From NCBI GenBank assembly GCA_963704705.1, contig OY969931.1, forward strand, positions 300,001-332,000: a stretch of 32,000 bases of DNA. Reading direction: 5' to 3'. Below, piece by piece: positions 9,396-26,224 of the stretch; position 1 is the stretch's first letter; the number at the start of each line of letters is the position of its first letter. This DNA is from an uncultured bacterium. Lineage in GTDB: Bacteria > Patescibacteriota > Gracilibacteria > UBA1369 > PNNO01. The position numbers were made by a program, and so were the translations under genes. Below the pieces are notes generated by a model that saw only the letters and a list, made by a program, of their open reading frames with translations, was not told the origin of the DNA and did no database searches.

Positions 9396-9400
9396 AGTTA

Positions 9401-10021
9401 CTAAGTACATTTAGCGGTTGTGGCATCAACGAATTTAGACGGAAGCTTTTCAATCTCCTGTCTTAATTCGGATAGCTTTTTGTTATATTTTGTTAAAGCT
9501 TCAATTAATTTTTCAAATTTTTCGTGCATTCTATAGGTAGGCAGGATTTCATTGTAAGTATCCAAAGCCATATCTAATGCCTTTTTGGCTTGCGTTAACT
9601 CATTATCAATAGTTAAAGTCTGGCTTGCAGATAAAATCCCGATCTTTGCTAAACCTTCTTCCTGTCCCATTGAAACTGTTTGTTTTCTTTTTCTTAGTGC
9701 TTCCGCGTATTTTTCATATTCGTCGGCAACTGCTATTGAAAGACAGAATGTTGAGTAATTGTTCTCGCTGCATTCGTCTGCCGTAGGTATTTTTGTTGTA
9801 CCAGAACCTTTATCTCCTTGTTTTAACAATTTTAGTTTTGAATTGAATATGTCATTTATTCGTTTATGGTAAAGCACTTTAACTTCTTCGAAAGTTAATT
9901 GTTCTTTGTCGTATTGATTAATTGTTGCTGCCTGAAGCGTTCCGTAGAACAATCCTGATGCCAAAATTAATACTGCAAGTACGAGTGTAAGTCCGAATTT
10001 TATTTTTTGTTTTTGTATCAT
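9401..10021 (-). CDS. Secreted or anchored helical hypothetical protein, C-terminal ...TAKCT (cassette gene 2)
   Basis: 206 aa with an N-terminal hydrophobic signal, MIQKQKIKFGLTLVLAVLILASGLFYGTLQA|A, and a coiled-coil-like remainder. The start overlaps the upstream stop as ATGA (10018-10021). Penultimate Cys. Confidence 0.75.
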   Translation of the reverse strand: MIQKQKIKFGLTLVLAVLILASGLFYGTLQAATINQYDKEQLTFEEVKVLYHKRINDIFNSKLKLLKQGDKGSGTTKIPTADECSENNYSTFCLSIAVADEYEKYAEALRKRKQTVSMGQEEGLAKIGILSASQTLTIDNELTQAKKALDMALDTYNEILPTYRMHEKFEKLIEALTKYNKKLSELRQEIEKLPSKFVDATTAKCT

Positions 10022-10551
10022 ACGCAGTTTTTAATAAAACAAGGTACGCGGCCTTTTAATGTTAGCCATTTACCATAAAGCTGCATAACAGCTTTAAACA
10101 TTTCATCCATTTTTTTATTTATTGCTTTAAGTTTTTCCATTACTGCTGAAGTTGTTTTTACGTTTGAAGTCTGTTCAAAATAACTCCTTAATTGTTTTTC
10201 CATAAGGTTAATTTCGCTGGTTACCATCTGGCTGCATTTAAGTTTTTGTGCAGCTGTTCCAAAAAGTTCAAAATTGTCTTCAGGTAAATATTCATTATAT
10301 TTTTGATAAAGATCTTTTTTATATACATCGAATCTCTTTAAAGCCAAATCAAGCAAAGAAGAATTAGTTTTTTTGCTTTGAAAATGTTCCTGCATATAAG
10401 TTCTCATTTCCGCGCTTTTCTGCTCAAGGAAAGGTTTCATGTTTGCTACACAATTATTGTCGGCATCCGCTGCAAAAGCAGTTGGAAGTCCTCCCGCAAA
10501 AATCGAGAAACTTATTAATATTGCCAATATTTTTTTAAGTTTATGGTTCAT
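10018..10551 (-). CDS. Secreted helical hypothetical protein, C-terminal ...IKNCV (cassette gene 1)
   Basis: 177 aa with signal peptide MNHKLKKILAILISFSIFAGGLPTAFA|A and a helical K/E-rich body. Its ATG (10549-10551) lies inside the last codons of the giant ORF (11-nt overlap in a different frame). Penultimate Cys. Confidence 0.75.
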   Translation of the reverse strand: MNHKLKKILAILISFSIFAGGLPTAFAADADNNCVANMKPFLEQKSAEMRTYMQEHFQSKKTNSSLLDLALKRFDVYKKDLYQKYNEYLPEDNFELFGTAAQKLKCSQMVTSEINLMEKQLRSYFEQTSNVKTTSAVMEKLKAINKKMDEMFKAVMQLYGKWLTLKGRVPCFIKNCV

Positions 10552-13500
10552 ATTTAAAGGTTAATTCGTTACTTTTTGAGAAAATCGTAGACAAGTCGCC
10601 ATTCGCAATAACAGCAAACAGAATGTCGCCTATAATTAAATCCGCCTTATGATCAAGCGCAGAAAGACATGGACATGAATTGCAATCATTCTCGACAACA
10701 TACACTCCTTCATCTAAATTCTGTCTTGGATCAAAGCCTCCTTCTTCTATTCTTCCAGTTGTAATAAGCTCGTCATCCTGAGGATAGTCCACAGGATTTG
10801 TTCCTCGTTCAACTTCAACACCATCATATGTGCCTCCATCATCAGTGTCAGGATCAAAAGGATCGGTTCCGAATCTGTATTCATCCAAATTACTTAAGCC
10901 GTCTCCATCAGGATCAAGTCCCGCATCATTTGGATCATTCGGATCAAGACCATTTTGAATTTCCCATATATCCGGCATTCCATCACCATCAGTATCGATT
11001 ATGTAACAATCAAACGCCTGCAGTACTCTGTCCGCTATTGCTGCGAACTCAGCACGTGTTAATAATTTATTAGGCTGCGAAGCTTCACTTGGAGTGAGAA
11101 TATAAGTTTCTTTTACCTCGCTTTCTTTAAGAAGGCGAGGGGATATATCAACCGCAATATTCATATATGGAACATACCATGCCTGATCTTTTGAAGGCTG
11201 AACATCAGCCAGGCTTATTATTCCCTGTTTTTCAAGAGCTTCCAAAACAATCTTTACTGCTTCAGCTCTTGTAATTGTTGCTTCCGGTTTATAAGGGTTC
11301 AAACCTGATTCCTGGTCGATCTCACCAACATAACCTGTAACAAAGCCCTGTAATGTAGCTTCTTTAATAACAGGATAATAATAATTATTCTCATCAAACG
11401 GCATGTCAGAATAAAGATTAGGTTCTTCATGTGCTTCCGGCCTAGGAATAATACAAAGCATTTTCAGGATAATATCAGCAAAATCTTTTCTTGCAATAAA
11501 TTTGTCAGGATTAAAATCATATTTACCGTCAACTATTTCTCCCATTAAAATATTTTTTTGTGAAAGATTTACAATTGAATCATAATAAGGGTGATCTTCA
11601 GGTACGTCATCAAATGGCGAGCCAGCAGCTTTATTTGGATTTTTACCCCAGCTGACTTCATCACCGTCACTAAATCCATCACCGTCAGTATCAGGATTAA
11701 GGGGATTAATTCCAAGCCTGAATTCTTCTAGATTTGAAAGTCCGTCTCCATCAGAATCCAAGTTGGCATCATCTGGATTTCGCGCATCAAAGCCGTATTG
11801 CAATTCAAAATTATCACTCATTCCATCACCATCAAGATCGCTTGTACTAATTTCTTTAGGAAGACCGATTTGATCCCGACTCACAATTTCCGCTTGTTTG
11901 CCGTTATTAATTGAGATAAATACTTCCGCGATAACATTTGAATCATAAAGCATTTCAATTACAAGGGGTTCGTTTGTGTCAGTTACAGGTTTAAGTCTTA
12001 AATCAAGTTTATCATCAAAGAAGTAAATGTTTCCGCCTGAATCAACAATTGAAACTCTCGAATCAGAGCTTGTATCTCTTATTTCCGCACCACCGGTAAA
12101 GTTGGGATCGTCAGCAGGCAGACTGCTAATTTCAAATTGATCGTTTGGATTTGTATCTTTAATATGTGTACCTTCAAGTTCGAATATTGAACCAATATCA
12201 AAATTAAAATCGCTATTGTGAATTGTTACATCAGTATTTAAATCAGGAATCAGCAAAACAGTGGTCATTATTTCGTTTGTTGATTTTTCAATTACAACCA
12301 TTCTGGTTGGCATACTTGGGAATGTTGCTTCATAAACATCCACATAATAATTTTCATCTAGAATTATTATTCTTCCGGTATATGTATCGATTTCAGCTAC
12401 AACCTTGCCATCAACATTTTTAACTAAAATCGCATCATTGTAATTTAAGCCGTCAACTCTGAAATTACCTTCTTCGTCAGTTGTCGTTTCTGCAATCTTA
12501 CTGACTGCACCATCACGTTTTCTAACAAGAGTAATTGGAATATCCTGTGCCACAGGATCAATTGAACCAGTAATTAATTCGCTTGTAGCTGATGATTCAT
12601 TAAGAGTGATATCAGGCGCAACAACTTCAATGTTAATTATTTGTTTACCGATATTTCCTGATTCATCCACTGCATTAAGACCATATTGAACAGTACCGAG
12701 TTTTTCAAAAGGACCGATCAGAAATATTGGGTGACTCGGGATTGAATTCATGTAGTCGTTATCATTTGCCGGATCACCATCGTTATCTGAATCTTCTTTA
12801 ATATTTGTATCAATATAGAATTGTTTAATTTTTCCGTTTGTATCAAAAGATTTTGAAGCATCCAGCCGTAACGTCTGCATAACAATCACCTGTTTATCGG
12901 ATGGGCCGGCTTCCACAAATGGCTTTTGATCATCAGAACAAATCTGAGGTGCAAATATTTTTGTTTCAGTTGGATTGCCTTTTTTGCCATTATTGCCGAT
13001 CGCATATATTTGAGAATAATAATTTCCTTCTTCTGATTGAAGGTTAATAAATGGATTGTTCGGATCAGTAAGTTCAATTATTTTAAGCGAATCTTCAGGT
13101 CCGAGAATTGTTTTCGCACCATTAGCAAAAGTGATTTCCATTGTTCCGCTTTGCATTTGAATTGTTTCATTGAACTGTAAAAGCATTCCTCGTTCAGCTG
13201 ATGTTTCGTTTATAAGTTCATCAGTCGGAGTAATAAGTTCAACTTTTCCGCTTGTAACCTGGATTTCAATATCGTCTGTGTATTTTTGTGAAACCGGTAT
13301 TGTTCTGTTTGCGGATATTTCAAGATTTTGCTGAACTCCTTCTTCAGGGTAAATTATCATTTTCGAGTCTTCCATTGTATGAATTATCTGTCCTTTTTGT
13401 AGAATTTGTCTGCCTGAACCTGAATTTAGGATTTGTCTGGACATGCCTTTTAATGTCGCTTGTCCACTGAAATTTGATATATACGCAAGTCCGTCAGCTA

Positions 13501-16500
13501 CTGTTGATCCAAAGAAATATGAATTTTTAAGCGGTTCAACTGTGTCTCCATTTTTAAATATCATTTTTACATCGGCGTCTTCGTTTATTGTGCTTGAATT
13601 TTCCTGTAAAAACATATTGGTAAAGAAGTTGCTTCTGAATTCCGCGCGCCCCGTAACTACTGTGACTTCAAAGTCACCCGGTGTATAGTCAGGTAACTTA
13701 ATAATTGTATCAGGTCCAAGGAATATCTGGCTCGAATCAGAGAAACTGATTGCAACTTGAGTATTAGGATCCGAACCTGTTTCTATTGAATCTCCGAAAT
13801 TATAAAGTTCCGATGATTCACCATTAACAGTATAAGTTCCTTCCACAGCTGTAATCTCGAGGTCTTGTTTAATTCTACCTACCGTAATAGTTTGTTCTTT
13901 GTTTTCAATAACAACAATTTTATCCGAAGGGGTATAATCAGTTGAATCAAAATCAGCCAGGCTATCTTTATTAACAATCTCATAACCGGATATAGAACCT
14001 TCACTTAAGCCCTGCCAGTCAAAGTCACCTTCGGTTCCCACATCATAAGTAACATTGTAATTATTTACTGTTGGAGCCTCCGGAATATAATCATCTAAAT
14101 TTGCCACTTTTGCATTTTGTGAATTGTACTTAACAAATTCACTTGCAGGAGGTTTAGTGTAATTTTCTTTTAAATATACATTTCCGCCATAAGAATAAAT
14201 AATATCTTCATCTTCGTCTTTATCAATATCAGCAATAATTGAATTGTTTGGAAGACCAATCTCGCCTTCATACATTAGGATTCTTTCATTTACTCCTGTT
14301 GCAGGATTAAAGACATACAATCCTGTAAGTTCTGTTTGTCCGTCAGGATTTGTCACCTGCTCTTCACTAATTACATTTGGAGAAATAGCATTTGTATTTA
14401 AAGCTATAAGTCTCGCTGTATTTTTTATTCCTTCAAAAGATTCACTTTCGGTTTTCTTTTTAATGCTTAACGGTACAGGCTCAGCTGAAGCGGTTTGTCT
14501 TGTTTTAATATAATCATTTAATCTCGGAGCATTATCTGCAAGTGCAACTAAGCGGTCATAATCTTCTCCAACCGACTGACTGAATAATTGGTCGCTATCA
14601 GTATATGCAATTAATGCATCGCGTAAATTAGTATGATAATTAGTTGCCATTTCCGGAGGAAGATCTTCATTTTCAATGGAAGTTTTAATTTCTTCATAAG
14701 AACTATTTAAAGCATCTGGATTAATATAACTTTGTGTTGCGACAAGTTTAATCGGGTCAGGATTATAAGCCTGCGGACTTGGAATTTCAGGTACGGCAGG
14801 CACTTCTGGTATTGATGGGATCTCAGGAGTAGGTATTTCTATTTCTGAAATAGCCTGAGAAATTTCAGCGGAAACTTTACTCAAATCAGTTGCAATGCCA
14901 TTCCACGCTTTTGCAACTTCTTCGATCGACTTATAAATTGAATCTGTTTCGAGCCTTAAATCAACCTTTAGGTTTAATTTGATTTTATCAATCGAAGGAA
15001 TATTAACTGCGGGAGATTGTACGCTGAACAATGTATCTATTGGCAAAGACGTACTGCTTGAACGCGCTGTAGCAGCTTCTATATGCGATTTCAAATTTGA
15101 AACAGGAATTGGCAGTAAGTTTTTTTTCAATAAACACATTATTTTAATTGCAACTGAAAGACCATCCAAAGCAGTATCTATATTTGATGAAAGCTCAGGA
15201 ATTTTTGGCGGATCAGGTAAGTCAGGCAATTGTGGCAAAGGCATTGGCGGCAAGTCAGGCAATTCAGGGAATTCTGGAATCTCAGGTAGTTCAGGAATTG
15301 AAACACTTAACACCGAAGAAGCATTTTTAATAATATCCAGATTTTGTTCAATTTGTTTTAAAATATTTTCAACTTCTGGTGGCAGTGGAACACCCGGCTG
15401 AGTCGGCAATTGCGGAAGCGTTGGGAAGGTCGGCAATTGGAAATCAGGCAATTTTGGCATTATTATTTGTTCCTTTTTAAACTGAATATCAGGAAGCACA
15501 ACTTTTAATCCAAGTTGAATCTGAGAGAAGTCAAAATGGAAATCCGGCCACTTAGGAAATTGAATTATAGGTGGCTGTGGTATTGCGCCGGTGAACAATT
15601 GCGCAAGCAGCTGCATCAAACTGTATCTTTCAGTTTTACAGCTATCGCAAGTCTTCATATAGTCGGACATGAGTTTACTAATTTTTTGCCATGTTTTAAG
15701 CAGATTTTTTATGTCTAAAGTAACCTTTTGCCATCCATTAATTTTGCTGACCTGTTTTTTAAAGTATCCGCCCATGTAAGTAACAATAGTGTCGAGGTAG
15801 CAAATTAATTGTTTAATGTATTTTGTTTTAACATTTTTCCATTCCAGAATTTTAGCCGGTAGTTTTTTATATTCTTCTAAAAGCTTAAGATTTTTTTCAA
15901 CGCTTGCGATTGGTTTTTCGATTGAAGCAAACGCAGACAAACATTTATTTTTTAATTCAGGCTTAAGATCACACGGTATTTTTAATTGAACTTTTAATTG
16001 TTGTAATTGAATTTTCGCTTTAGCCAGCCAGTTTTGAAGTTCCGCCTGTAATTTTGGAATTTCTGCTGCAGATAAAGCAGGTATTTTCATTTGAATTGAT
16101 TTGACTTCAAGATCAATTAAAGGAAGTTTATTCACATATGTAAGAACATCCTGGAATGTTTTAAAGTTAGCTGTAGGAGGAGTTTCAGAAACAAATGAAC
16201 TTGGGTTCGGATAATAAACATATAAATCAGGCAGATCCGATAATTTAACCATAATTTCCTCAATCTGTTTTGCGAACCAATCCGTTATAACGCCAGGGAA
16301 GCCAGGTACTTTTTTATTTGTATTTGAAGAACCACTCGGTTTATATCCGCCAAGCAAAGAGGTCCCGGTTAATCCGCCATTGCCTTCTCTTGGATTAATT
16401 GAGCCTGAACTGCCTCCACCGCCGCTCAATAAACTTGTACCGCTTGCTGAACTTATTACATTAGTTGCTTTAGCCATTGCGCTTTCAAAAGCTTCTGAAA

Positions 16501-19500: not shown

Positions 19501-22500
19501 GCTTTATTTCGAAAGGCTGATAAGCAATTGAATAAATTTGTATCAAGCCCGGATCAAGCCCGATTGAAGTCGCGCTAACTTCTTCAATTCCAGATTTTGT
19601 TGTTGATTTAAATGTAATTGTCGCCTCACCATTTTGTAAATCTTTTACTGGATCGGTTGTAAATGCTCCGAGGCTTTCGTCAGCTGCCTTGAATATAATC
19701 TGTTCATTATATCCTGTTAAAATACTGCCGGTTCCATCAACAGCCTGTGCTCTAAGCTGAATAGTGTCTGATCCATTGGCATAAATAAATTCTTTTCCAG
19801 GAATGATTTCAAGTTTAATATCATCGCGAGATGCAACGGTTGTACTCGCAGATAAATTTAAGTCATCTTTATTTAGTGTGGCGTTAATCTCAATATCACC
19901 TTCCAGTTCTGTTGAGAATAAATCCACATTAACAAATCCTTCATAAGTATCAAGCTGTATGCCTTCTTTGTTTTTATCAATATCAGCATTTATATCAAGA
20001 ACTCCGGGACCGCTAATATTTACATCAATATCAAAGAAATCATTATTTACAACATTGTTGTTGATATCATAAAGAGTGATTGTTAATGGTGTTTTTGAAA
20101 GCCCGCCTGTTTTAATTACATTAGAACGCGGAGTGATTTCCATTCGTACAGGTGGCTGAGGCTCTGCAAAAACCTGATGAGGCATTGTTGGCAATGAACC
20201 AGTAACGAGTTTTGCTCCTACATCAATTACTCCGGCATTCGTTGTTGAAGTGATTGTATTAACTGCTGTTCCGTTTTGAACTCGTACTTTTGTTTCACCA
20301 AGCTTAGCATCTGTTGTAGACGTATCTTTTAAAAAGAATTCAATTACACTGTTATTGTCACTTTCTATAATGTCTCCTTTTTCATCAAGTACTTCAGCTG
20401 CAAGGAATAATGTAGACAATCCGTCAGCTGTGAAAGTGTCTATCAAATTCAAAACCTGCTCCTGCACACCTTCTGTGATTATCTGAAAAGCAGTGTCTTT
20501 TTCAATGTTATTGCCAAGCGCCACTATTCCCACTCCAAAAGCCGGATTGCCTGTGTCGTCACCTCCACTTAAAGGGTCGGTGTTCTGAAGCCATACTTCA
20601 TCACCATCTTGAGTACCTCCGCCATCAGTGTCCGGATTTCTCGGATCAGTATCATTGTTATATTCATGAATATTTATAAGTCCATCAGAATCAAAGTCAT
20701 AATATGCATCTGATGAATCAAATTTATCCAAACCATTTGCATCTTCCCATATGTCCGGAATTCCATCTCCATCACTATCCAAAAACGCATCATCAGACGG
20801 ATCAAGTGGATTTTTATTGCTTACAATTTCAGTAAGGTCATCAAGCCCGCCCTGGTCAGTATCAGCTGATGTAATTGAAGTGTTGTATTGGTAAATTTCT
20901 ATGTTATCTGGTAATCCGTCGCCATCCTGATCAAGCTTGTAGCAATCAAACACTTTAGTAATATTTTGTACCATAATCGCAAATTCAGCTCGGGTAATAG
21001 GTGATGTAATATAAGTTTCGAATACATTACTTGGAGAACTCAGCTCATTATCAACCCAATCTTTGAATTCTTCTTCTGAATAAGTATTAAATGGCGCAAG
21101 TGATGGATTGGTTTGTTCAGGATAAATATTTTCGGATTTTGCTTTAAGTACATATCTGTAATACCACGGCTTTCCTGCTTCATAATAATCAAGGCTGTCT
21201 ATTCCTGCGGCTTCAAGGATCACTTTGACCGCTTCAGCACGGCTTATATTGTATTGGGGTTTAAAATATCCGGCATCTTTTCCAGCTGCATAACCTGCTA
21301 CAATTCCTTCATTTTTACCTTCTTTAACACAATATCCAAACTCTTCAGAAATATCCGAATCAGGAAAAGGACTGGGAGCGTAAATAGAATCCACTTTTTG
21401 TTTAGCAGCATCTGAAAATTTAGAGCAATTCACACATGTTATACCAAGAACCATTCTAAGATATTCTTCACGTGTAATTAAATCGTTCGGTCTAATTGTA
21501 TTATTCGCACCTCTCGTGATTACACCTTTAAGTAGGAGGCTGGTAAATGCACTATAAGATGCCTGAACCGGATCCAAATCACTAAATAACTTCGCGTCTT
21601 TTTTAAGTGGATCATATCCGCTTGTAATTTCTTCTCCATCTCCAAAGCCATCTTTATCTGTATCTTTATCGATTCTGTTTGTGCCTATAAATGTTTCTTC
21701 CAAGTCTGTAAGCCCGTCCTGGTCACTGTCATTTTCATGGCTGCTTTGAGCAAAAGCTGTTTTGCTGATTTTTTCAATAAGTTTGCTAAGCAAATCAGGA
21801 AAGTCGCTTGTTACATTAATCTGGCTTTGCCTGTAGCTTATATAAAATTCAGCCAGATCATTTCCGCTGCCGTCTTCAATAATAAAAATATAAGGTTCAT
21901 CAGTTTTATCCGGATTTTTTACTATTATAAAATGTTCATCCGCCACATAAACCTGTCCTTCATCTGTTATTCTTGCGATTCTTTGTGTATATGGTCCGCT
22001 ATTATCAAGAAGATAAATTGAATTATTTAATTCATACGGAATAACATAATCATTAGTTCTGATATCTTTAACATGGATTCCATTTAATGTTAGGGCGTTT
22101 TCTTCAAAGCTAAAATCAGGTTGCTGCAATGTAACAGATTTTTCATCAGGAACAACCATTACAGCCGCAACCAAATTACCTGTTCTGATTTCAATTATAC
22201 CTACACGCAATCTTTTATCTGGTTCTGATTCAAACACTTCTATATCGTAGGCTTCATTTTTAATCGTAATTTTGCCTGTGTCCGGGTCGATTTCCGCAAT
22301 TATTTCACCCGCATCATTTTTAACCACATATCCGTTTAATACTTCCTCTGTAAAAGTAGGAGGTTCAACAGTTTGAAGTTCATAAGTATAAACCCGAATT
22401 TTTCTGGCTTCACTTCGCAAACTTAAAATATTTGAAGTTAATATTGCTGGTCTGTTAACAGACTCAGCTGAAATATTAAATGAGCCAGGCACATCTGTTG

Positions 22501-25435
22501 CCCTTATATAAAATATGGCTTCTCCGTTAATAAGATTAAGGCTTTCAGGCCCATCTATCTGTACTCTGGATTCTGCTTCATTGCTTAAGTTAAGTTTTAC
22601 CTCAGTAAATGAATCAAAATTATTTACAGCACCGGTTGTATTTACAGCACTTACTTTAACTTCATATTTTTCAGTGCTGCCGGTTACAAGCAAACCATCT
22701 TCATTTCCGAATTCGATTGATAAACCAACCGAGGCTTCTGCCCCATCCGGAATGCCATTACCATTTTTATCTTTTAATGATTCCTGAACCGCGTCACCCT
22801 GTTCGCTGATTGGGAATTCACCGCAAGCCGGCTGAAAGCTTATATTGCTTACTGAACTTCCAATCTCAGTTAAATACTGAACAATATATGCAAACCAGGC
22901 TAATAGGTTGCGACCGGTTACTTCGTCTCCTCCGCTGTCCTCTTGAGCAGCTTCTTCAGCCGCAAGGCCAGGATCTAACTGTGATTCCGGATCAGCATAT
23001 TCCCCGTCAGTATCAGCAATGTCAGGGGTTTTATTTAAAGCGAAGTCAATTTCATTTGAATCACCTTGAGCAGTTAAGTAAAAATATTCATAACCGTTTG
23101 TGTTTTCACCAACATATGCATCAGCATTTCCATCCAAATAATTTTTAATGGCATATGCGTGTTTCTGATCAATAGTGAAATTTATCCAGTTAATTGCATC
23201 AGCAACTTTATCCTCTTCATCCTGTATTAATCCTGTTAGCTGACCGTCAATTTCAACCACATTAGGATCATAACCCGGTAAACTCATGAGATAATCCTCA
23301 AGTTCGGATAGCTCGGTATTTAAATCATCAATAGAAGCTTTTCTAAAAGTGTTTGGGTAGATTATTTCCTGATAATCACCTCCCATATCCTGAAAAGCAA
23401 CAAACCTTGGATCATTTACCGGCATTGATTCAATATCTCCTTCTTTTAAATGTTTTTGGATTGTTTCAAGAGTAGGTTCTTTATGATAAGTAATGCTATT
23501 GATTGTGGTTAGCGTAGGACTAAATACATGAGAAATATCAAGCTTCACTCTTTTTATCCCTTCAAAAGGTGGATTTTCAAGAATGAATTCATTTTTATGA
23601 CTTCCAAGAAGCTTTATTCCGATTTCATACGGATTATTCGCATCGATTTTATATTTAAGATTATATTCATCTTCTTCATCAATCAGTCCGTCACCATCAT
23701 TATCCACACCATCAAAGCCTCCATACATATCAAGGATGTCTTTAAAAGTAAGTCTCGGACTGTTAAATAAAATAATATCTTCCGCAGGTCTGTATTTAGA
23801 ACCAGGTAATGGAATAGCATCTTTTTGAGCTTCACTTAAATAAGGATTTGCAATTTGCAAAAGATAATTTGTTGCTTCAGCAATATAATCATCAAATCTT
23901 GTTTTTTCCCTGAAATCGTAACATCCTGCATAAGTTAATGCCTCTAAAGGAACATTATCAACATGTACACCAAAATTTTCATCATAAACAGGGTCAACAG
24001 CCAAATCAGGAAAACATCTTTCAGGATGATCTGTGTTGCTTGCATCACATCCACCGTAACCAGTGCTGTCAGTTGCATCCGGATTATATACTCTGTTAAA
24101 TTCGGTGTTACCTCTGTAAAGTGTGCATTGTTTTGGATCTGTGACTTCAATTCCAGCCAAACCATTAAAGTGAATAGTGCTAAATCCGCCTTCTAAATGT
24201 TTGCTGTTATTAATAAACCTTTGCTGAACAACATTTATATTATTGTTATTATCCAGCGTAACCATTCCGGTTATTGTAGCATCTTCAATAAAACTAAAAG
24301 GGGACTGTAAAGTTTCAGCAACTTCATCGATCTTTGCTTCAATCTTGTCATTAACTTCTCTTAAGTATTCCTGTGAATATAAATCTTTAGCGGAAATTAG
24401 CTCAACAATTGAATCCCAGTTATCCCATCTGCCGGTGCCTGCCATTAAATCATTGGCTTTTTGCAGATAGTTTTCGAATAACTGGTGAAATTTAACTGCG
24501 TAAGCCTGGATAATTGTATGACTTTGCGCATCAGGCAAATCTTCAAACATTGCCGGATCAACAAAATCAGACAAATCTTTATCTCCATCAAGAAGTTCGG
24601 TTAATAAGTCTTTGGTATATCTGTAATATGCAAAGTCTTCCAAATGACTCGCGTAATTTTCATATCTTTTTAACACTGTTTGATCCAAAAGATTTTGTTC
24701 CCAGATCGTGTCAGCATATAATGCTTTTTCATCAAATTCAGTAAAATCAGGATTACCGCTGTGATATAAATGATTTTTATCAAAATATTCAGCAAGTTGA
24801 GTTTTTGCTTCTGCGCCTGTACGAGAAGGTTTTATTACCCCGTGCCAGACTTCGGGCTTTGGACTTAATGCTTCGGTGTTATATTCGAAATCTCTGGTAT
24901 CAATATTATAAATATATGATTTATCTTCAAAATCAGTATATGGAAGCATGCTAATAAATTTGAATCCGTTTTTATTTACAACCGGCAAAGGGACATCACC
25001 TATAGTTATTACACCTTCAAGCTGGCTTTTACCGCTTTCTGTCTCATCACCTTTAAAATATAAAGTTTCAAGAGCCCTCGAAATATCATAAGGAGTTTGA
25101 CTCGGATCAACTTTTAGAATTATTGATTTAGTAAATGTATCAGCCATCTGGACATCTTTTGCAAAACGATTAACCCTGTCTCTTAAAGTAAGAGAACTAA
25201 GTTCACCCCCATATTGTCCGATTAATCCGTTATATTGCTGATTATCTTCAAATAAACCATCTTCAACCAAAACAGCAATAAGCGATGTAACCTTGGTTGG
25301 CGCGTTTTCATTTCCAGACAGGCCAAATTGAGCGCTTGCCATTGGCGCTGTGACAAATTGTGTAAACAGGATCGCGGGGATAAGCAATCCTGACACAAAA
25401 TTTAAAAGTGAATTTTTGATTTTTGTTTTGTCCAT
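10541..25435 (-). CDS. Giant secreted mosaic surface protein (4,964 aa): SLH, TSP3-like, Ig-like, FG-GAP, PKD-like modules and an unassigned central region
   Basis: A single stop-free frame of 4,964 codons in AT-rich DNA, with ATG at 25433-25435 and TAA at 10541-10543. Signal peptide ...FTQFVTAPMASA|Q. Domain motifs readable by eye are listed as sub-features below. All antisense ORFs inside it are short and low-complexity. Confidence 0.9.
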   Translation of the reverse strand: MDKTKIKNSLLNFVSGLLIPAILFTQFVTAPMASAQFGLSGNENAPTKVTSLIAVLVEDGLFEDNQQYNGLIGQYGGELSSLTLRDRVNRFAKDVQMADTFTKSIILKVDPSQTPYDISRALETLYFKGDETESGKSQLEGVITIGDVPLPVVNKNGFKFISMLPYTDFEDKSYIYNIDTRDFEYNTEALSPKPEVWHGVIKPSRTGAEAKTQLAEYFDKNHLYHSGNPDFTEFDEKALYADTIWEQNLLDQTVLKRYENYASHLEDFAYYRYTKDLLTELLDGDKDLSDFVDPAMFEDLPDAQSHTIIQAYAVKFHQLFENYLQKANDLMAGTGRWDNWDSIVELISAKDLYSQEYLREVNDKIEAKIDEVAETLQSPFSFIEDATITGMVTLDNNNNINVVQQRFINNSKHLEGGFSTIHFNGLAGIEVTDPKQCTLYRGNTEFNRVYNPDATDSTGYGGCDASNTDHPERCFPDLAVDPVYDENFGVHVDNVPLEALTYAGCYDFREKTRFDDYIAEATNYLLQIANPYLSEAQKDAIPLPGSKYRPAEDIILFNSPRLTFKDILDMYGGFDGVDNDGDGLIDEEDEYNLKYKIDANNPYEIGIKLLGSHKNEFILENPPFEGIKRVKLDISHVFSPTLTTINSITYHKEPTLETIQKHLKEGDIESMPVNDPRFVAFQDMGGDYQEIIYPNTFRKASIDDLNTELSELEDYLMSLPGYDPNVVEIDGQLTGLIQDEEDKVADAINWINFTIDQKHAYAIKNYLDGNADAYVGENTNGYEYFYLTAQGDSNEIDFALNKTPDIADTDGEYADPESQLDPGLAAEEAAQEDSGGDEVTGRNLLAWFAYIVQYLTEIGSSVSNISFQPACGEFPISEQGDAVQESLKDKNGNGIPDGAEASVGLSIEFGNEDGLLVTGSTEKYEVKVSAVNTTGAVNNFDSFTEVKLNLSNEAESRVQIDGPESLNLINGEAIFYIRATDVPGSFNISAESVNRPAILTSNILSLRSEARKIRVYTYELQTVEPPTFTEEVLNGYVVKNDAGEIIAEIDPDTGKITIKNEAYDIEVFESEPDKRLRVGIIEIRTGNLVAAVMVVPDEKSVTLQQPDFSFEENALTLNGIHVKDIRTNDYVIPYELNNSIYLLDNSGPYTQRIARITDEGQVYVADEHFIIVKNPDKTDEPYIFIIEDGSGNDLAEFYISYRQSQINVTSDFPDLLSKLIEKISKTAFAQSSHENDSDQDGLTDLEETFIGTNRIDKDTDKDGFGDGEEITSGYDPLKKDAKLFSDLDPVQASYSAFTSLLLKGVITRGANNTIRPNDLITREEYLRMVLGITCVNCSKFSDAAKQKVDSIYAPSPFPDSDISEEFGYCVKEGKNEGIVAGYAAGKDAGYFKPQYNISRAEAVKVILEAAGIDSLDYYEAGKPWYYRYVLKAKSENIYPEQTNPSLAPFNTYSEEEFKDWVDNELSSPSNVFETYITSPITRAEFAIMVQNITKVFDCYKLDQDGDGLPDNIEIYQYNTSITSADTDQGGLDDLTEIVSNKNPLDPSDDAFLDSDGDGIPDIWEDANGLDKFDSSDAYYDFDSDGLINIHEYNNDTDPRNPDTDGGGTQDGDEVWLQNTDPLSGGDDTGNPAFGVGIVALGNNIEKDTAFQIITEGVQEQVLNLIDTFTADGLSTLFLAAEVLDEKGDIIESDNNSVIEFFLKDTSTTDAKLGETKVRVQNGTAVNTITSTTNAGVIDVGAKLVTGSLPTMPHQVFAEPQPPVRMEITPRSNVIKTGGLSKTPLTITLYDINNNVVNNDFFDIDVNISGPGVLDINADIDKNKEGIQLDTYEGFVNVDLFSTELEGDIEINATLNKDDLNLSASTTVASRDDIKLEIIPGKEFIYANGSDTIQLRAQAVDGTGSILTGYNEQIIFKAADESLGAFTTDPVKDLQNGEATITFKSTTKSGIEEVSATSIGLDPGLIQIYSIAYQPFEIKLETDSDTFNSSNDSTTVTAKIYDMNGNFVEFDNQTPLTFRITDETSKYGEITSDASAIVNKGKAEVTIAGKGISGEVHLVASSPGLTSGTINLYPLTKISSEDIVGDYPDALYGTMLGGPFGDPTQEKYAAGEILFKGNVQAVTALTVDANPNMPLATIDANGGISMTGDSSLESSFNAPNSVIISNPETGQDVAEVTYEYPGGMPINIVDFANTEMLQEGIYLIKQTEDEMFKFVELSDAAGITVNGNEGLRISSGGKLKVSDNLMEIKLSDTESSFLVLDVLYADEKIAEIIYAKNLNTDAKINSAITSNGIFVKKLSDDYIVSQTVAGSSTKEPKGVLISDKNLKVVGSSAPGFSYTSLEKINDVMGVGLDGDNKHSLFFAGGNSVGVSNIPYATDIGINLGDPTVRLGLKNQITSAGYTKDIGQPLYSGDDTIKEMVLSDYNNDSLDDIILAYESGEVRLLQRQLSARPYKDKGLLLDITNGIYSIASADFNNDGYDDLLVSTKDPCVGDEVCFYLYENHEGNFTRTHLDLDLDDKVSSIKIGDMNNDGYVDIVLAELSGNIKIYYNNEGVIDTNGQIVENLGMSIDGSSDFKNEVLIHYDGMPVELEYVIDANGNFVLDSEGKKIPYLDDDFNFQSITMKSGSASNNEFVDAATQAQLEALGADPAVFAAQEEVPFIYMDADPIFGSTDSSKKAVDINGSTLAMGDKIVYTITLFNNSPNEINNLMLSDFITDTLEFNPDSLKCINCNQDIQVIDTGMSLRPWAVTIPSIPSGESRLITYEMNVINVPEIALDLNSNFDANFPKDGFLDISANPSNNNSGKNLFLYSVSKDQETGRMSYSRYVTDPAQAQKPDLPFGIEDANGDGIADSLPSEIEDMAKDLNEGDADGDGVPNAWDEVNGAVDNVADEISKIIDTFSCKGGCIPTPINMAFLAPGPINVMGTPAGADPGTPVFVYGPVTIYLSPTLTAHLANSVCIAGQCWSLIIPLLPPEACQAISEAFESAMAKATNVISSASGTSLLSGGGGSSGSINPREGNGGLTGTSLLGGYKPSGSSNTNKKVPGFPGVITDWFAKQIEEIMVKLSDLPDLYVYYPNPSSFVSETPPTANFKTFQDVLTYVNKLPLIDLEVKSIQMKIPALSAAEIPKLQAELQNWLAKAKIQLQQLKVQLKIPCDLKPELKNKCLSAFASIEKPIASVEKNLKLLEEYKKLPAKILEWKNVKTKYIKQLICYLDTIVTYMGGYFKKQVSKINGWQKVTLDIKNLLKTWQKISKLMSDYMKTCDSCKTERYSLMQLLAQLFTGAIPQPPIIQFPKWPDFHFDFSQIQLGLKVVLPDIQFKKEQIIMPKLPDFQLPTFPTLPQLPTQPGVPLPPEVENILKQIEQNLDIIKNASSVLSVSIPELPEIPEFPELPDLPPMPLPQLPDLPDPPKIPELSSNIDTALDGLSVAIKIMCLLKKNLLPIPVSNLKSHIEAATARSSSTSLPIDTLFSVQSPAVNIPSIDKIKLNLKVDLRLETDSIYKSIEEVAKAWNGIATDLSKVSAEISQAISEIEIPTPEIPSIPEVPAVPEIPSPQAYNPDPIKLVATQSYINPDALNSSYEEIKTSIENEDLPPEMATNYHTNLRDALIAYTDSDQLFSQSVGEDYDRLVALADNAPRLNDYIKTRQTASAEPVPLSIKKKTESESFEGIKNTARLIALNTNAISPNVISEEQVTNPDGQTELTGLYVFNPATGVNERILMYEGEIGLPNNSIIADIDKDEDEDIIYSYGGNVYLKENYTKPPASEFVKYNSQNAKVANLDDYIPEAPTVNNYNVTYDVGTEGDFDWQGLSEGSISGYEIVNKDSLADFDSTDYTPSDKIVVIENKEQTITVGRIKQDLEITAVEGTYTVNGESSELYNFGDSIETGSDPNTQVAISFSDSSQIFLGPDTIIKLPDYTPGDFEVTVVTGRAEFRSNFFTNMFLQENSSTINEDADVKMIFKNGDTVEPLKNSYFFGSTVADGLAYISNFSGQATLKGMSRQILNSGSGRQILQKGQIIHTMEDSKMIIYPEEGVQQNLEISANRTIPVSQKYTDDIEIQVTSGKVELITPTDELINETSAERGMLLQFNETIQMQSGTMEITFANGAKTILGPEDSLKIIELTDPNNPFINLQSEEGNYYSQIYAIGNNGKKGNPTETKIFAPQICSDDQKPFVEAGPSDKQVIVMQTLRLDASKSFDTNGKIKQFYIDTNIKEDSDNDGDPANDNDYMNSIPSHPIFLIGPFEKLGTVQYGLNAVDESGNIGKQIINIEVVAPDITLNESSATSELITGSIDPVAQDIPITLVRKRDGAVSKIAETTTDEEGNFRVDGLNYNDAILVKNVDGKVVAEIDTYTGRIIILDENYYVDVYEATFPSMPTRMVVIEKSTNEIMTTVLLIPDLNTDVTIHNSDFNFDIGSIFELEGTHIKDTNPNDQFEISSLPADDPNFTGGAEIRDTSSDSRVSIVDSGGNIYFFDDKLDLRLKPVTDTNEPLVIEMLYDSNVIAEVFISINNGKQAEIVSRDQIGLPKEISTSDLDGDGMSDNFELQYGFDARNPDDANLDSDGDGLSNLEEFRLGINPLNPDTDGDGFSDGDEVSWGKNPNKAAGSPFDDVPEDHPYYDSIVNLSQKNILMGEIVDGKYDFNPDKFIARKDFADIILKMLCIIPRPEAHEEPNLYSDMPFDENNYYYPVIKEATLQGFVTGYVGEIDQESGLNPYKPEATITRAEAVKIVLEALEKQGIISLADVQPSKDQAWYVPYMNIAVDISPRLLKESEVKETYILTPSEASQPNKLLTRAEFAAIADRVLQAFDCYIIDTDGDGMPDIWEIQNGLDPNDPNDAGLDPDGDGLSNLDEYRFGTDPFDPDTDDGGTYDGVEVERGTNPVDYPQDDELITTGRIEEGGFDPRQNLDEGVYVVENDCNSCPCLSALDHKADLIIGDILFAVIANGDLSTIFSKSNELTFKYEP
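10793..10997 (-). repeat. TSP3-like Ca-binding aspartate repeats (module B, distal)
   Basis: DTDGDGMPDIWEIQNGLDPNDPNDAGLDPDGDGLSNLDEYRFGTDPFDPDTDDGGTYDGVE, followed by an 83-aa C-terminal tail containing DCNSCPC. Confidence 0.65.
10997..11630 (-). other. S-layer homology (SLH)-like triplet B
   Basis: FDDVPEDHPYYDSIVNLSQKNILMGE...FIARKDFADIILKML; YSDMPFDENNYYYPVIKEATLQGFVTGY...ATITRAEAVKIVLEALEK; ...LLTRAEFAAIADRVLQAF. This is a paralogous copy of triplet A. Confidence 0.65.
11630..11850 (-). repeat. TSP3-like Ca-binding aspartate repeats (module B, proximal)
   Basis: DLDGDGMSDNFELQYGFDARNPDDANLDSDGDGLSNLEEFRLGINPLNPDTDGDGFSDGDE. Boundaries approximate. Confidence 0.65.
12615..12950 (-). other. 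PKD-like Ig-fold domain (tentative)
   Basis: PFVEAGPSDKQVIVMQTLRLDASKSFDTNGKIKQFYID...VQYGLNAVDESGNIGKQIINIEVVAPD has a layout like the PKD pattern (A.ag.d..v..g..v.ldgs.S.d.dg.i..y.Wd...........vtl.v.D..G). Confidence 0.4.
14760..16750 (-). other. Unassigned central region of the giant protein (Cys-framed hydrophobic segment, G/S-rich stretch, coiled-coil with Cys pairs, Pro-rich spacers)
   Basis: SCKGGCIPTPINMAFLAPGPINVMGTP...CIAGQCWSLIIPLLPPEAC; SGGGGSSGSINPREGNGGLTGTSLLGG; heptad-rich KLQAELQNWLAKAKIQLQQLKVQLKIPC...KNKC...MKTCDSCK; then the Pro-rich blocks. I recognise no family. Confidence 0.5.
15180..15300 (-). repeat. Proline-rich P-[ED]-[LIF]-P repeat block
   Basis: This stretch encodes PELPEIPEFPELPDLPPMPLPQLPDLPDPPKIPE. 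A second, shorter block, IEIPTPEIPSIPEVPAVPEIPSPQ, lies at about 14770-14845. The antisense Gly/Ser-rich ORF 14979-15401 is its mirror image. Confidence 0.8.
17130..17400 (-). other. DUF11-like conserved-repeat beta-sandwich domain (tentative)
   Basis: GDKIVYTITLFNNSPNEINNLMLSDFITDTLEFNPDSL...GESRLITYEMNVINVP resembles the G..v.Ytitv.N.G...a.nv.v.D.lp..l.f pattern. HMM confirmation is needed. Confidence 0.35.
17780..18215 (-). repeat. FG-GAP/VCBS-like repeats (three)
   Basis: VLSDYNNDSLDDIILAYESGEVRLL, ASADFNNDGYDDLLVST and IGDMNNDGYVDIVLAELSGNIKIYYN follow the D-x-N-x-D-G-x-x-D Ca-binding loop pattern of integrin-alpha-type beta-propeller blades. Confidence 0.6.
19215..20470 (-). repeat. 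About four tandem bacterial Ig-like (Big/invasin-type) domains
   Basis: Roughly 100-aa beta-rich units recur with the pattern ...T.TA...D..GN.V......V.F......G......T...G.A.v.l.s...G...v.A... . Examples are TVTAKIYDMNGNFVEFDNQTPLTFRITD...NKGKAEVTIAGKGISGEVHLVASSPGL and IQLRAQAVDGTGSILTGYNEQIIFKAAD...NGEATITFKSTTKSGIEEVSATS. Boundaries approximate. Confidence 0.6.
20555..20945 (-). repeat. TSP3-like Ca-binding aspartate repeats (module A, distal)
   Basis: DQDGDGLPDNIE, DTDQGGLDDLTE, DSDGDGIPDIWEDANGLD, DFDSDGLINIHEYNNDTDPRNPDTDGGGTQDGDE. Boundaries approximate. Confidence 0.65.
20945..21595 (-). other. S-layer homology (SLH)-like triplet A
   Basis: FSDLDPVQASYSAFTSLLLKGVITRG...ITREEYLRMVLGI; FPDSDISEEFGYCVKEGKNEGIVAGY...YFKPQYNISRAEAVKVILEAAGI; ...ITSPITRAEFAIMVQNITKVF. 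These fit the SLH pattern F.D......a....l...gi..G......p...itRaE.a..l. Boundaries approximate. Confidence 0.65.
21595..21745 (-). repeat. TSP3-like Ca-binding aspartate repeats (module A, proximal)
   Basis: DSDQDGLTDLEETFIGTNRIDKDTDKDGFGDGEE is of the D-x-D-x-D-G-x-x-D type. Boundaries approximate. Confidence 0.6.
25331..25435 (-). other. Sec-type signal peptide of the giant protein
   Basis: MDKTKIKNSLLNFVSGLLIPAILFTQFVTAPMASA|QFG has a basic n-region, a hydrophobic core and an A-x-A cleavage motif. Confidence 0.7.
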
Positions 25436-25471
25436 TTTTTAGCCGGCTTGATATTTATTAAATATCATATT

Positions 25472-25500: not shown

Positions 25501-25516
25501 GGGTAAATAGATAAAA

Positions 25517-25630: not shown

Positions 25631-26158
25631 TTATAGGAGTCTCATAAAGTATGTATCTCCTTCACTTGGTTGGGCTGATCCATCAAATGATTCTGGATCA
25701 TCATTAGTATTATTTTTCTTTGGCGTTTCCATTACAGTAGCAATAATATATTCAATTCCATTTTCACCTATACGTTTGTAATAATATTGTCCATTCTCTA
25801 CACAGTCACCTGGATCAGTTACTTCTGTTGATAGACTTCTGTTTGGAGATGGATCTTTTGGAGGAGTTCCACCTTTAAAGTAATCAACAGCAACTGAATC
25901 TGAGCCTCCTGGTTCAATAAATACACCGTCAGCATCACCTGTGAAACAAGCACCAGCACCTAATGCCAATGGGTAAGTACCATAGTCAGAGTTAAATGTT
26001 TCAAGAGCAGTCACTAAATTATTAATATCTCCTTCTCTTGCAGCGTCCCTTCCTCTAGAGAGAGCATCTCTAATAGTCGGGTACAATGAAGCAGCAAGTA
26101 CGCCGATAATCGCAATTACTATAAGTAATTCGATTAGTGTGAAACCTTTTCGTTTCAT
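25631..26158 (-). CDS. Type IV pilin (major pilin candidate)
   Basis: MKRKG|FTLIELLIVIAIIGVLAA is the canonical class III (prepilin peptidase) signal with Gly-1/Phe+1/Glu+5. The globular C-terminal domain has two Cys. The ORF track start at 26185 adds 9 residues; the ATG at 26158 gives the usual short leader. Confidence 0.9.
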   Translation of the reverse strand: MKRKGFTLIELLIVIAIIGVLAASLYPTIRDALSRGRDAAREGDINNLVTALETFNSDYGTYPLALGAGACFTGDADGVFIEPGGSDSVAVDYFKGGTPPKDPSPNRSLSTEVTDPGDCVENGQYYYKRIGENGIEYIIATVMETPKKNNTNDDPESFDGSAQPSEGDTYFMRLL

Positions 26159-26224
26159 GGTTAAATGGTTAAAGTTATATTCCAATTAAACATTATACAA
26201 TATTGAAAAATAAATGCAAAAAAA

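Follow-up and report, generated by a model that had tools for sequence, protein, structure and literature searches.

A large part of bacterial diversity belongs to the CPR (Patescibacteria), whose members are believed to live bound to other cells, and we know of no attachment molecule identified in them outside Saccharibacteria. In the window, the whole stretch of 32,000 nt that was analysed, which comes from an uncultured Peregrinibacteria/Peribacteria bacterium, one minus-strand frame runs from an ATG start for 4,964 aa (10541..25435; hereafter the giant). An initial annotation had described it as one ORF whose length was very unlikely to be fortuitous, encoding a secreted, wall-tethered attachment fibre of mosaic adhesin type. 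The ORF is present as claimed, and the chance of such a stop-free run of 4,964 codons is about 1e-146 given the base composition of the window. Alternative genetic code 25 was considered and rejected, as no in-frame TGA interrupts any called ORF; stop codon usage in the called ORFs is TAA 15, TAG 2, and TGA 1.

More than 120 collinear homologues of 4,000-6,160 aa were recovered, the collinearity running from end to end across over 100 of them. A minimum of 149 species genomes contain relatives, at one locus each, and among these are three complete chromosomes of 1.3-1.5 Mb. According to database records, the family belongs almost entirely to Peribacteria/Peregrinibacteria (Patescibacteria/CPR). 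Full-length homologues at 92%, 61%, and about 50% identity measure 4,954, 4,977, and 4,929-5,016 aa, respectively, and all are collinear with the giant; such agreement speaks against a frameshift, chimerism, or repeat collapse. Judged by sequence, the giant is a genuine member of a large family of predicted surface proteins of about 4,000-6,100 aa. Conservation is even over the 5,000 aa of this family, in which 24 of the 30 cysteines of the giant are invariant, four are kept at 92-98%, and two at 65%. The mosaic adhesin label fits such a protein poorly, since its end-to-end collinearity, single copy per genome, and near-invariant cysteines are unlike what is seen in repeat-variable adhesins.

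Giant surface proteins of CPR bacteria have been noted before, in Vampirococcus lugosii (PMC8080830), in Peribacter riflensis (PMC4736985), and in a survey of proteins longer than 5,000 aa (PMC11573180). Those proteins were predicted to lie in the envelope, carry DUF11 and integrin-type domains, and were treated, alongside type IV pili, as likely factors of attachment, and Peregrinibacteria were reported to be enriched in proteins above 5,000 aa (PMC8080830, PMC4736985, PMC11573180). The giant comes from the same broad lineage and lifestyle as these proteins, which the papers describe in general terms only. A full-text literature search likewise brought up nothing beyond general remarks about giant CPR proteins, and nothing on the architecture, the duplicated SLH cassette, the central domain, or the locus of pilin, giant, and four downstream genes (D1-D4) presented below.

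Export through the Sec pathway is predicted from a signal peptide at aa 1-35 (25331..25435, minus strand), where a basic n-region (MDKTKIKNS) is followed by a hydrophobic core at aa 10-28 (Kyte-Doolittle 1.9) and an ASA|Q site, as read from the sequence. The core is the sole strongly hydrophobic, uncharged segment of the protein; three other windows exceed the hydrophobicity cut-off of 1.5, in all of which charged or polar residues or a pair of prolines are found. Kyte-Doolittle windows over the whole protein revealed no membrane helix besides the signal peptide. The signal peptide of the initial annotation was thus seen again, and the predicted secreted, surface location is upheld by it together with the lack of a further membrane segment. 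A sortase-anchored protein was rejected as a candidate, as LPx[TSA]G is absent anywhere in the giant and the C-terminus has no sorting signal consisting of a hydrophobic segment and a basic tail. With a net charge of -436 and 13 DxDxD[GN] motifs, the giant resembles the RTX, Bap, LapA, and MpIBP adhesins, which are likewise very large and strongly acidic, carry Ca-binding motifs and Ig-like arrays, and have a presumed role in surface contact. These adhesins, however, have a C-terminal type I secretion signal, whereas the giant has an N-terminal Sec signal and no match to HemolysinCabind/RTX nonapeptide in the whole-protein Pfam scan, and a type I-secreted RTX adhesin was rejected on these two grounds. 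The giant also lacks their long arrays of near-identical repeats, having instead a fixed architecture at one locus per genome.

Pfam was scanned with the whole protein (matches listed to E <= 1) and with tiles (listed to E <= 0.5). This segment-wise HMM check supported the TSP3, SLH, Ig-like, FG-GAP, and DUF11 domains that had been read by eye. TSP3_bac (PF18884) scored 45.3 bits over the whole protein and 90.1 bits in five stretches of the last tile against a cut-off of 25, which, with the 13 acidic motifs, agrees with the TSP3-type repeats reported. The estimate of about four Ig-like units also held, with domains at aa ~1650-2075 (19211..20488) marked by tile matches and internal repeats; Invasin_D3 (49.6 bits), Big_1 (33.1 bits), and Glyco_hydro2_C5 (44.4 bits) match in the tile of aa 1501-2000 and together extend over aa ~1670-2075, and the best Glyco_hydro2_C5 stretch in the whole-protein scan is aa 1977-2069. 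Three recognisable FG-GAP/VCBS blades, the number originally counted, lie at aa ~2400-2560 (17756..18238), where FG-GAP_3 (32.2-32.8 bits, cut-off 26.9) and FG-GAP (34.0 bits in the tile) match aa 2422-2552 and DxNNDGxxD motifs stand at aa 2472 and 2526. A complete FG-GAP/VCBS beta-propeller has about seven blades, against which only three can be recognised here. The proposed DUF11-like unit was recovered at aa 2681-2769 (17129..17395), where PF01345 (cut-off 24.6) reaches 29.7 bits in the tile scan and a borderline 24.0 bits in the whole-protein scan, and TIGR01451 scores 27.4 bits against 24. The PKD-like units did not survive, as no PKD model matched the whole protein at E <= 1 or any tile at E <= 0.5.

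The Ig-like, FG-GAP, and DUF11 domains are situated between two cassettes that carry the predicted wall anchors, all on the minus strand. Cassette A (aa 1037-1630; 20546..22327) consists of a beta module, TSP3, three SLH segments (aa 1284-1500), and a run of TSP3 repeats, and cassette B (aa 4337-4890; 10766..12427) of a beta module, TSP3, three SLH segments (aa 4607-4812), and TSP3. The two SLH triplets therefore lie where the initial annotation had placed them, at roughly aa 1280-1500 and 4600-4810. SLH (PF00395) is the top Pfam match in all six segments, with 57.7 bits for the whole protein; the individual scores are 28.4, 25.2, and 15.6 bits in triplet A and 22.8, 14.1, and 16.5 bits in triplet B, so that three of the six fall under the Pfam cut-off of 20.8. 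Five of the six segments retain a TRAE-type motif (TREE, SRAE, and TRAE in A; ARKD, TRAE, and TRAE in B), and most homologues have TRAE where the giant has ARKD. Three motifs make up one wall-polymer-binding domain in SLH proteins of solved structure, Bacillus anthracis Sap among them. Solved SLH proteins match both triplets, with the profile of triplet A reaching 8bz2 (E 1.3e-7) and Sap 6bt4 (6.5e-5), and a phmmer search with triplet B reaching the Sap chains 9g93 (E 0.0029) and 3pyw (0.0042). Sap (PDB 3PYW) and SpaA of P. alvei resemble the giant in having three tandem SLH motifs with TRAE-type signatures, and, by analogy with SLH-anchored proteins of single-membrane bacteria, Sec export and non-covalent wall attachment would be expected for the giant too. 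Sap and SpaA, however, carry one terminal triplet, whereas the giant, which is 5-10 times larger, carries two about 3,100 aa apart, each within a duplicated TSP3-bearing cassette. A csaB-like gene was not found within the window.

Self-comparison aligned cassette A with aa 4337-4875 at about 30% identity, and the two cassettes (~590 aa in A and ~550 aa in B) are, by this sequence relationship, old duplicates of each other. Of 121 sequences (120 homologues plus the query), 97 carry both triplets at orthologous positions, 2,841-3,545 aa from each other. With both anchors in place, the ~3,100 intervening residues would arch between two wall-pinned points, the central domain lying at the apex or close to it, and the ~1,000 residues at the N-terminus would extend as a free arm. 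This looped, two-point topology, which had been suggested from the placement of the triplets, is plausible and is not universal in the family: 21 homologues of 4,049-5,143 aa have the C-terminal anchor alone, and two-point pinning is on that account not essential. Four of the shorter homologues, aligned in detail, are missing exactly cassette A, without any collinear counterpart.

It is possible, if a minority view in our judgement, that the giant is instead a simple stalk, with only the C-terminal SLH module anchoring it to its own wall and cassette A doing something else, such as attaching to a different polymer or layer or to the wall of a partner cell, or mediating self-association. Such an arrangement would be in keeping with the near-universal presence of cassette B, which only three homologues lack (2,844-4,491 aa long, one of them marked as partial), and with the absence of cassette A as a clean block from a whole subclade. 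The cassettes are also strongly diverged, with a neighbour-joining (NJ) distance of 0.81 between A and B compared with 0.49-0.59 within types, which would permit differing specificities, and the region of triplet A has invariant cysteines of its own (1334, 1337, 1369, and 1498). Among these, the CxxC at 1334/1337 has no counterpart in the SLH region of cassette B, whose only cysteines are 4661 and 4810. Against the stalk stand the conserved TRAE-type motifs in all three segments of A, the match of its profile to solved wall-binding SLH domains, and its retention at the same position in the 97 sequences; the target polymers of the two modules are not distinguishable from sequence.

About 45% of the giant is without a Pfam match. 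For three large unassigned regions on the minus strand, searches against the PDB by sequence, and with profiles of two of them, gave nothing below E = 0.01. The N-terminal region (aa 36-900; 22736..25330) has no Pfam or PDB match and contains four invariant cysteines (437, 463, 474, and 505); residue 437 is the first cysteine anywhere in the giant. An AF2 model of its aa 36-560, built from trimmed alignment rows of 16 sequences over these 525 aa, reaches a mean pLDDT of 58, its confident part being limited to an alpha/beta subdomain at aa ~49-145, and the best E-value in a Foldseek search with it was 0.06. A gingipain/C25-like cysteine peptidase was tried for this region and rejected, as no Pfam match was found and Foldseek with the low-confidence model gave gingipain K at E 0.14 and a TM of 0.16. 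The central signature region (aa 2890-3720; 14276..16768), also without a Pfam or PDB match, combines a cysteine-rich beta subdomain, long helices, and proline-rich PxLP stretches. Its core, modelled from 25 sequences, is partly confident (pLDDT 65) and had no Foldseek match in the PDB or BFVD. A profile search with the central region found 557 clusters, 335 of them at E <= 1e-30, and nearly all of the listed matches are giant proteins with the domain in mid-protein; by this measure, the central signature domain is unique to the giant family. The region that follows (aa 3721-4336; 12428..14275) is beta-rich and has FecR-like and transthyretin-like matches below cut-offs, and cassette B is followed by a conserved C-terminal tail (aa 4891-4964; 10544..10765) with an invariant CxxCxC at 4918, 4921, and 4923.

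The giant is preceded by genes of a type IV filament. The locus reads rplJ-rplL, two membrane proteins, a PilB/GspE-type ATPase, PilC/GspF, a prepilin, the giant, and four secreted proteins (D1-D4), with the genes from U1 and U2 to D4 on the minus strand. U2 (212 aa) and U1 (406 aa; together 28889..30747) are single-pass membrane proteins conserved in two of the fetched loci (L001 and L003), and they occupy the position where PilN/PilO-like alignment proteins would sit. The assembly ATPase (27483..28886) scores 421 bits with T2SSE and 497 bits with PilB, the platform protein (26225..27496) scores 194 bits with T2SSF and 304 bits with GspF, and the GspG/PilA-like prepilin of 184 aa (25631..26185) has an N_methyl score of 39.4 bits and the processing site KRKG|FTLIELLIVIAIIG. 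All three component types, including a prepilin that carries the N-methylation motif, stand beside the giant, and their best NCBIfam matches are PilB, GspE, GspF, and GspG, all under equivalog cut-offs. Neither a PilD prepilin peptidase nor a PilT retraction ATPase was found in the window or in six fetched loci, although other parts of the genome may encode them, and no secretin gene is present at the locus. The same gene order occurs in five of the six fetched loci, with only the prepilin visible upstream in the sixth (L002); of 24 further loci, 20 have a prepilin gene ahead of the giant. The order of PilB, PilC, and prepilin is retained in relatives at only ~30% identity. The conserved block also takes in rplJ-rplL and uvrA, and part of the synteny may for that reason be general genome collinearity rather than functional coupling. 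A hairpin with a T-run lies 3' of the prepilin gene and a promoter-like site lies ahead of the giant, so that pilin and giant may be separate transcription units.

Downstream of the giant follow D1 (177 aa, ending PCFIKNCV; 10018..10551), which overlaps its stop by 11 nt, D2 (206 aa, ending TTAKCT; 9401..10021), which overlaps D1 by 4 nt, D3 (507 aa, ending ACNNFANTPYCT; 7887..9410), which overlaps D2 by 10 nt, and D4 (343 aa, ending CTKKSSERQCQ; 6848..7879), at 7 nt from D3. As predicted from this arrangement, D1-D4 are translationally coupled genes for secreted partners of the giant. All four occur in this order in 54 of 58 genomes, almost all of the proteins end in a conserved cysteine or cysteine pair, and the C-terminal half of D2 is paralogous to D1 (HHalign probability 84.7%). 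U1, U2, and D1-D4 have no family match in Pfam or NCBIfam. The locus recalls that of PilY1/PilC, where a large protein, whose Ca-binding region of beta-propeller type may have a counterpart in the giant, likewise adjoins pilin genes and four small accessory proteins, the minor pilins. The giant nevertheless has no match to Neisseria_PilC/PilY1 in Pfam or NCBIfam, and it carries wall anchors that a pilus-tip protein would not need; a PilY1/PilC tip adhesin was rejected on the former ground. D1-D4 were likewise rejected as minor pilins, as their N-termini are of Sec type and not of prepilin type. The internal cassette duplication, the pilus-like operon upstream, D1-D4, the share of sequence without a Pfam match, and the constancy of the cysteines were all absent from the initial annotation.

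The explanation that we favour, and hold to be rather likely, is that the giant is a Sec-exported, Ca-binding, disulphide-stabilised surface structure, held by SLH modules and working with the adjacent type IV filament in cell-cell attachment. After Sec export, it would fold outside the membrane, with disulphides and Ca2+ giving the fold stability. Its C-terminal SLH module would tether it non-covalently to wall polymer, and the N-proximal module would do likewise in most lineages. Together with D1-D4, the giant would form a fixed envelope structure that acts with the filament in host attachment. Of the wall-tethered attachment fibre first proposed, the predicted surface location and the two complete SLH triplets stand, whereas the fixed family architecture is unlike that of a variable adhesin. 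This functional reading comes from gene order and domain content. The unmatched ~45% and the weak AF2 models (pLDDT 65 and 58) would also allow a different activity, such as an enzymatic one, and the three SLH segments under the cut-off and the subclade without anchor A also weigh against this explanation.

Fixed architecture is likewise what would be expected if the giant and D1-D4 were structural parts of the type IV filament machine and not an adhesin, a reading that we consider unlikely. Together they would then form a collar or portal for the pilus that spans wall and surface layer and stands in for secretin and alignment parts, which are missing from a single-membrane cell. One locus per genome, collinearity, and near-invariant cysteines are typical of machine components, the place between the prepilin gene and four tightly coupled partners is fixed across deep divergence, the SLH modules would hold such a structure in the wall, and a secretin gene is missing from the locus. 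However, no likeness to pilus components was found in sequence or fold (no match to Neisseria_PilC, secretin, or PilMNOP), Ig-like, FG-GAP, DUF11, and TSP3 domains typify extended fibres of the cell surface, and between the pilin gene and the giant there is a terminator-like site. To our knowledge, known single-membrane bacteria have type IV pili without needing a component of this kind. Quite doubtful, in our view, is a bolder proposal in which prepilin, PilB, PilC, giant, and D1-D4 would constitute a lineage-specific, hitherto undescribed envelope organelle, with the giant as a two-point-pinned, disulphide-cross-linked scaffold through or alongside which the filament acts to capture hosts. 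Under that proposal, the giant would not be a passive adhesin, and it would be built largely from folds without known relatives.

It is improbable that the giant is the main lattice protein of an S-layer. SLH modules are the classic anchors of S-layers, homologues bear the database name 'S-layer homology domain-containing protein', and surface layers have been reported on CPR cells (PMC4736985, PMC13059738). However, smaller SLH proteins of 348 aa and 1,050 aa are encoded nearby in relatives (L003 and L002, respectively), and no likeness to known S-layer crystallisation domains was found. With a mass of 540 kDa and more than 15 heterogeneous domains, the giant also lies far outside the lattice proteins known to us. 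That the long ORF is an artefact of assembly or annotation (a chimera, a collapsed repeat, or a fused gene pair) is barely conceivable, as this worry stems from length and metagenomic origin alone and has no positive support, the independent homologues of similar length come from many samples and are collinear end to end, the closest of them is 92% identical at 4,954 aa, and the internal duplication is, at ~30% identity, too old to be a recent collapsible repeat.

For the attached, surface-held protein favoured here, the locus provides a concrete and conserved candidate for attachment, consisting of a core protein of ~5,000 aa, four predicted secreted partners, and a type IV filament set. The presence or absence of cassette A by lineage is a natural experiment, and the two SLH modules are expressible, assayable parts. 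The family-specific central domain, for which there is no known fold, could act as a marker. If the two-anchor arch is true, it would be an unusual mounting of a surface structure. As far as domain content and gene order indicate, the giant probably belongs to the apparatus by which these tiny bacteria attach to other cells.

A single minus-strand open frame of 4,964 codons had been read from the sequence, and this frame is present at 10541-25435, beginning with ATG. Since the stop probability per codon is 0.066 at the G+C content of the window (~35%), the chance of a stop-free run of this length is ~1e-146. The genetic code is standard across the window (stops TAA 15, TAG 2, TGA 1), with no in-frame TGA in any called gene. 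The giant protein encoded by this frame is exported. Its N-terminus carries the claimed Sec signal peptide, recognized by reading from a basic n-region, a hydrophobic core at aa 10-28, and ASA|Q, and the rest of the sequence contains neither a further convincing membrane segment nor an LPxTG motif. Its net charge of -436 makes the protein strongly acidic.

Scanning the full-length sequence and ten tiles of it against Pfam and NCBIfam supported most of the domains named in the initial annotation. TSP3_bac was matched, the Ig-like units correspond to Invasin_D3, Big_1, and Glyco_hydro2_C5 matches at aa ~1650-2075, FG-GAP was matched at aa ~2400-2560, and DUF11 at aa 2681-2769, whereas the proposed PKD units found no match in these scans. 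The two SLH triplets lie where they had been placed, at aa 1284-1500 (triplet A) and aa 4607-4812 (triplet B). When the six predicted SLH segments were scanned singly, SLH was the best family for all six, three of them above and three below the curated cut-off. The giant protein carries both wall-binding modules and Ca-binding repeats.

Pfam matched nothing in four stretches that together make up ~45% of the sequence (aa 36-900, 2076-2400, 2890-3720, and 3721-4290). Searches of PDB sequences returned nothing for aa 36-900, 2890-3720, and 3720-4340, nor did profile searches of the PDB for the N-terminal 525 residues (aa 36-560) or the central core (aa 2893-3480). For this core, AF2 gave a model (pLDDT 65, pTM 0.37) in which a small beta subdomain holding the invariant cysteines is followed by very long helices (model residues 233-370, pLDDT ~80) and, after these, by proline-rich segments; Foldseek found no match to the model in the PDB or BFVD. 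The model of aa 36-560 (pLDDT 58) is confident solely for an alpha/beta subdomain at aa ~49-145; its best PDB match has an E of 0.06, and gingipain K follows at 0.14. Because no cysteine occurs in the first 436 residues (the first is at 437), the gingipain K match is a lead rather than evidence.

The second anchor belongs to a cassette that has been duplicated: when the protein was compared with itself, aa 1037-1624 (cassette A) and aa 4337-4875 (cassette B) proved paralogous at ~30% identity. In both, a beta-rich module is followed by TSP3 repeats, then three SLH motifs, then further TSP3 repeats. Among homologues, A-type triplets score 144-338 bits against one another (476 bits in the homologue with 92% identity) and only 18-55 bits against B-type triplets, as in the reciprocal search, which argues that the duplication is old and that both copies were kept at orthologous positions. 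Of the query and 120 homologues, 121 sequences in all, 97 have both triplets, separated by 2,841-3,545 aa (median 3,119). Another 21 homologues, of 4,049-5,143 aa, have the C-terminal triplet alone. Four of these, aligned in detail, follow the query collinearly to residue ~1020 and again from ~1645-1765, and their sole counterpart of the 1037-1630 block is the paralogous C-terminal cassette. Two-point anchoring therefore appears dispensable in one subclade. In a neighbor-joining tree the A copies form one clade and the B copies the other, with single-anchor B copies basal, a topology compatible with one gain or several losses of cassette A and unable to decide between them.

In solved SLH structures, three motifs make up one wall-polymer-binding domain, and each triplet is thus plausibly a complete anchor. 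Triplet B matches Bacillus anthracis Sap directly (9g93, E 0.0029; 3pyw, E 0.0042), the triplet A profile matches solved SLH proteins (8bz2, E 1.3e-7; Sap 6bt4, E 6.5e-5), and TRAE-type motifs are conserved at all six SLH positions across the family. From these conserved motifs and their positions, it is plausible that both modules bind the cell's own wall, in which case a loop or arch would follow. Binding of the own wall by the C-terminal anchor alone is the less likely arrangement, though one to be taken seriously, and it concerns topology, not function. Other, smaller SLH-domain proteins are encoded near the locus in two relatives (348 aa, L003 6430-7476; 1,050 aa, L002 1-862), so SLH anchoring is seemingly used by several envelope proteins of the lineage.

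Every gene from 31806 down to 6848 lies on the minus strand. The first, rplJ (L10; 31312-32000), is cut by the window end; its frame stays open to that end, making a listed 164-aa ORF an internal-start artefact, and its product has an unusual C-terminal extension of ~60 aa in which Ala, Pro, and Glu abound. It is followed by rplL, by U1 (406 aa) and U2 (212 aa), single-pass membrane proteins without a family match, and by genes for a PilB/GspE-type ATPase (27483-28886), a PilC/GspF platform protein, and a classical prepilin (KRKG|FTLIELLIVIAIIG) directly upstream of the giant gene. Compared with the PilB model, the ATPase is missing about 180 positions at the start, and it ends in a low-complexity tail of ~55 aa enriched in Ala, Glu, Pro, and Gln. 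Downstream of the giant gene, D1-D4 (177, 206, 507, and 343 aa) each encode a protein with a Sec-type signal peptide and no family match. The overlap is 11 nt between the giant stop and the D1 start, 4 nt between D1 and D2, and 10 nt between D2 and D3, while D3 and D4 are separated by 7 nt; genes packed this closely are suggestive of translational coupling. At the C-terminus, nearly all D proteins have a conserved cysteine or pair of cysteines (for example D1 PCFxKxC, D2 TTxxCT, D3 PCxxLxxKxxC, D4 CxKxxxxxQC), with a cysteine in the last 12 residues of 50-63 of 60-64 sequences per family, and the conserved tail of the giant protein holds an invariant CxxCxC. The C-terminal halves of D1 and D2 are paralogous (HHalign probability 84.7%).

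In six relatives with fetched contigs (giant identity 27-33%), five keep the order rplJ-rplL, U1, U2, ATPase, platform, prepilin(s), giant, D1-D4, small HTH_17 gene, and uvrA, with rplJ-rplL beyond the locus edge in L003; in the sixth, L002, the prepilin alone is visible upstream. L002, from a record labelled Gracilibacteria, has three PIN-domain genes with small partner ORFs between prepilin and giant (6343-8913), which resemble insertions of toxin-antitoxin type into a locus that is conserved in other respects. Among species-genome loci whose flanks were long enough, 54 of 58 have D1-D4 behind the giant in the same order and on its strand, and 20 of 24 have a prepilin gene immediately upstream of it. 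Part of this synteny may be general collinearity, as the block includes rplJ-rplL and uvrA; the stronger signals are the overlapping giant-D1-D4 genes and a pilin-giant adjacency that persists despite insertions (L002, L003). Throughout a bacterial class, then, the giant is linked genetically with four secreted partners and with a set of type IV filament genes.

A hairpin (AGCCGAT...ATCGGCT, then seven T) lies 3′ of the pilin gene (~25465-25605, minus strand), and just ahead of the giant start, at 25500-25472, is a promoter-like GTGACA-17-TAAAAT that has a TG upstream. Since these elements separate the pilin gene from the giant, the giant and D1-D4 may be transcribed apart from the pilus genes, as a unit just downstream. 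It is rather unlikely that the giant complex itself belongs to the pilus machine, as a wall portal. On the plus strand beside D4, a 97-aa HTH_17-like ORF (6240-6533) overlaps a 63-aa ORF (6526-6717) with a four-cysteine zinc-ribbon-like motif. All six related loci likewise have an HTH_17 gene next to D4 and opposite to it in strand, with a ~55-65-aa ORF beside it in most, and the two ORFs together could regulate the operon.

A search with the whole giant returned at least 187 relatives at E <= 1e-10, named in their records 'S-layer homology domain-containing protein' and assigned to Candidatus Peregrinibacteria, Gracilibacteria, or 'Patescibacteria group'. Among the 120 listed, all but two measure 4,000-6,160 aa (the others, 2,844 and 3,404 aa, are apparently truncated), and the closest share 92% (4,954 aa), 61% (4,977 aa), and ~50% identity. 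An alignment of 41 full-length sequences is collinear from end to end, with fairly even identity to the query (0.19-0.55 per 100-residue block). The cysteine framework is nearly invariant: of 30 cysteines, 24 are present in 40/40 homologues, four in 92-98%, and two in 65%. At query aa ~290-330, many members carry a 100-200-aa Asp/Cys-rich insertion with DxDxDG repeats and a DGCPGVCG motif, which is absent from the window protein and its closest relatives. A central-region profile run against 1.84 billion representative proteins matched 557 clusters, 335 at E <= 1e-30, and nearly all matches listed are giant proteins with the domain mid-protein. A one-genome-per-species scan found 149 relatives; 80 loci were kept, each from a different genome, and all but three have titles naming Peribacteria, Peregrinibacteria, Gracilibacteria, or Patescibacteria, with three complete chromosomes of 1.3-1.5 Mb. 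The architecture is fixed, with one locus found per genome. That the giant is the S-layer lattice protein is improbable. The giant ORF is neither an artefact nor an orphan, and the chance that it is an artefact is negligible.

The giant protein belongs to a known kind, the SLH-anchored surface protein. Its family bears automatic names only in databases, and a survey of proteins >5,000 aa found Peregrinibacteria to be enriched in them and described these proteins as uncharacterised (PMC11573180). Searches of literature outside subscription journals turned up no paper on the duplicated SLH cassette, on the signature domain at the centre of the protein, or on the pilin-giant-D1-D4 locus. Export, anchors, Ca repeats, acidity, cysteines, fixed architecture, and locus ties favor a stable envelope structure over the fast-evolving mosaic adhesin of the initial annotation. 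In agreement with general proposals on giant proteins and pili in CPR bacteria (PMC8080830, PMC4736985), the giant is probably a wall-anchored surface assembly, which would be stabilised by Ca2+ and disulphides, held on the wall by its SLH modules, and would act with the adjacent type IV filament in cell-cell contact.
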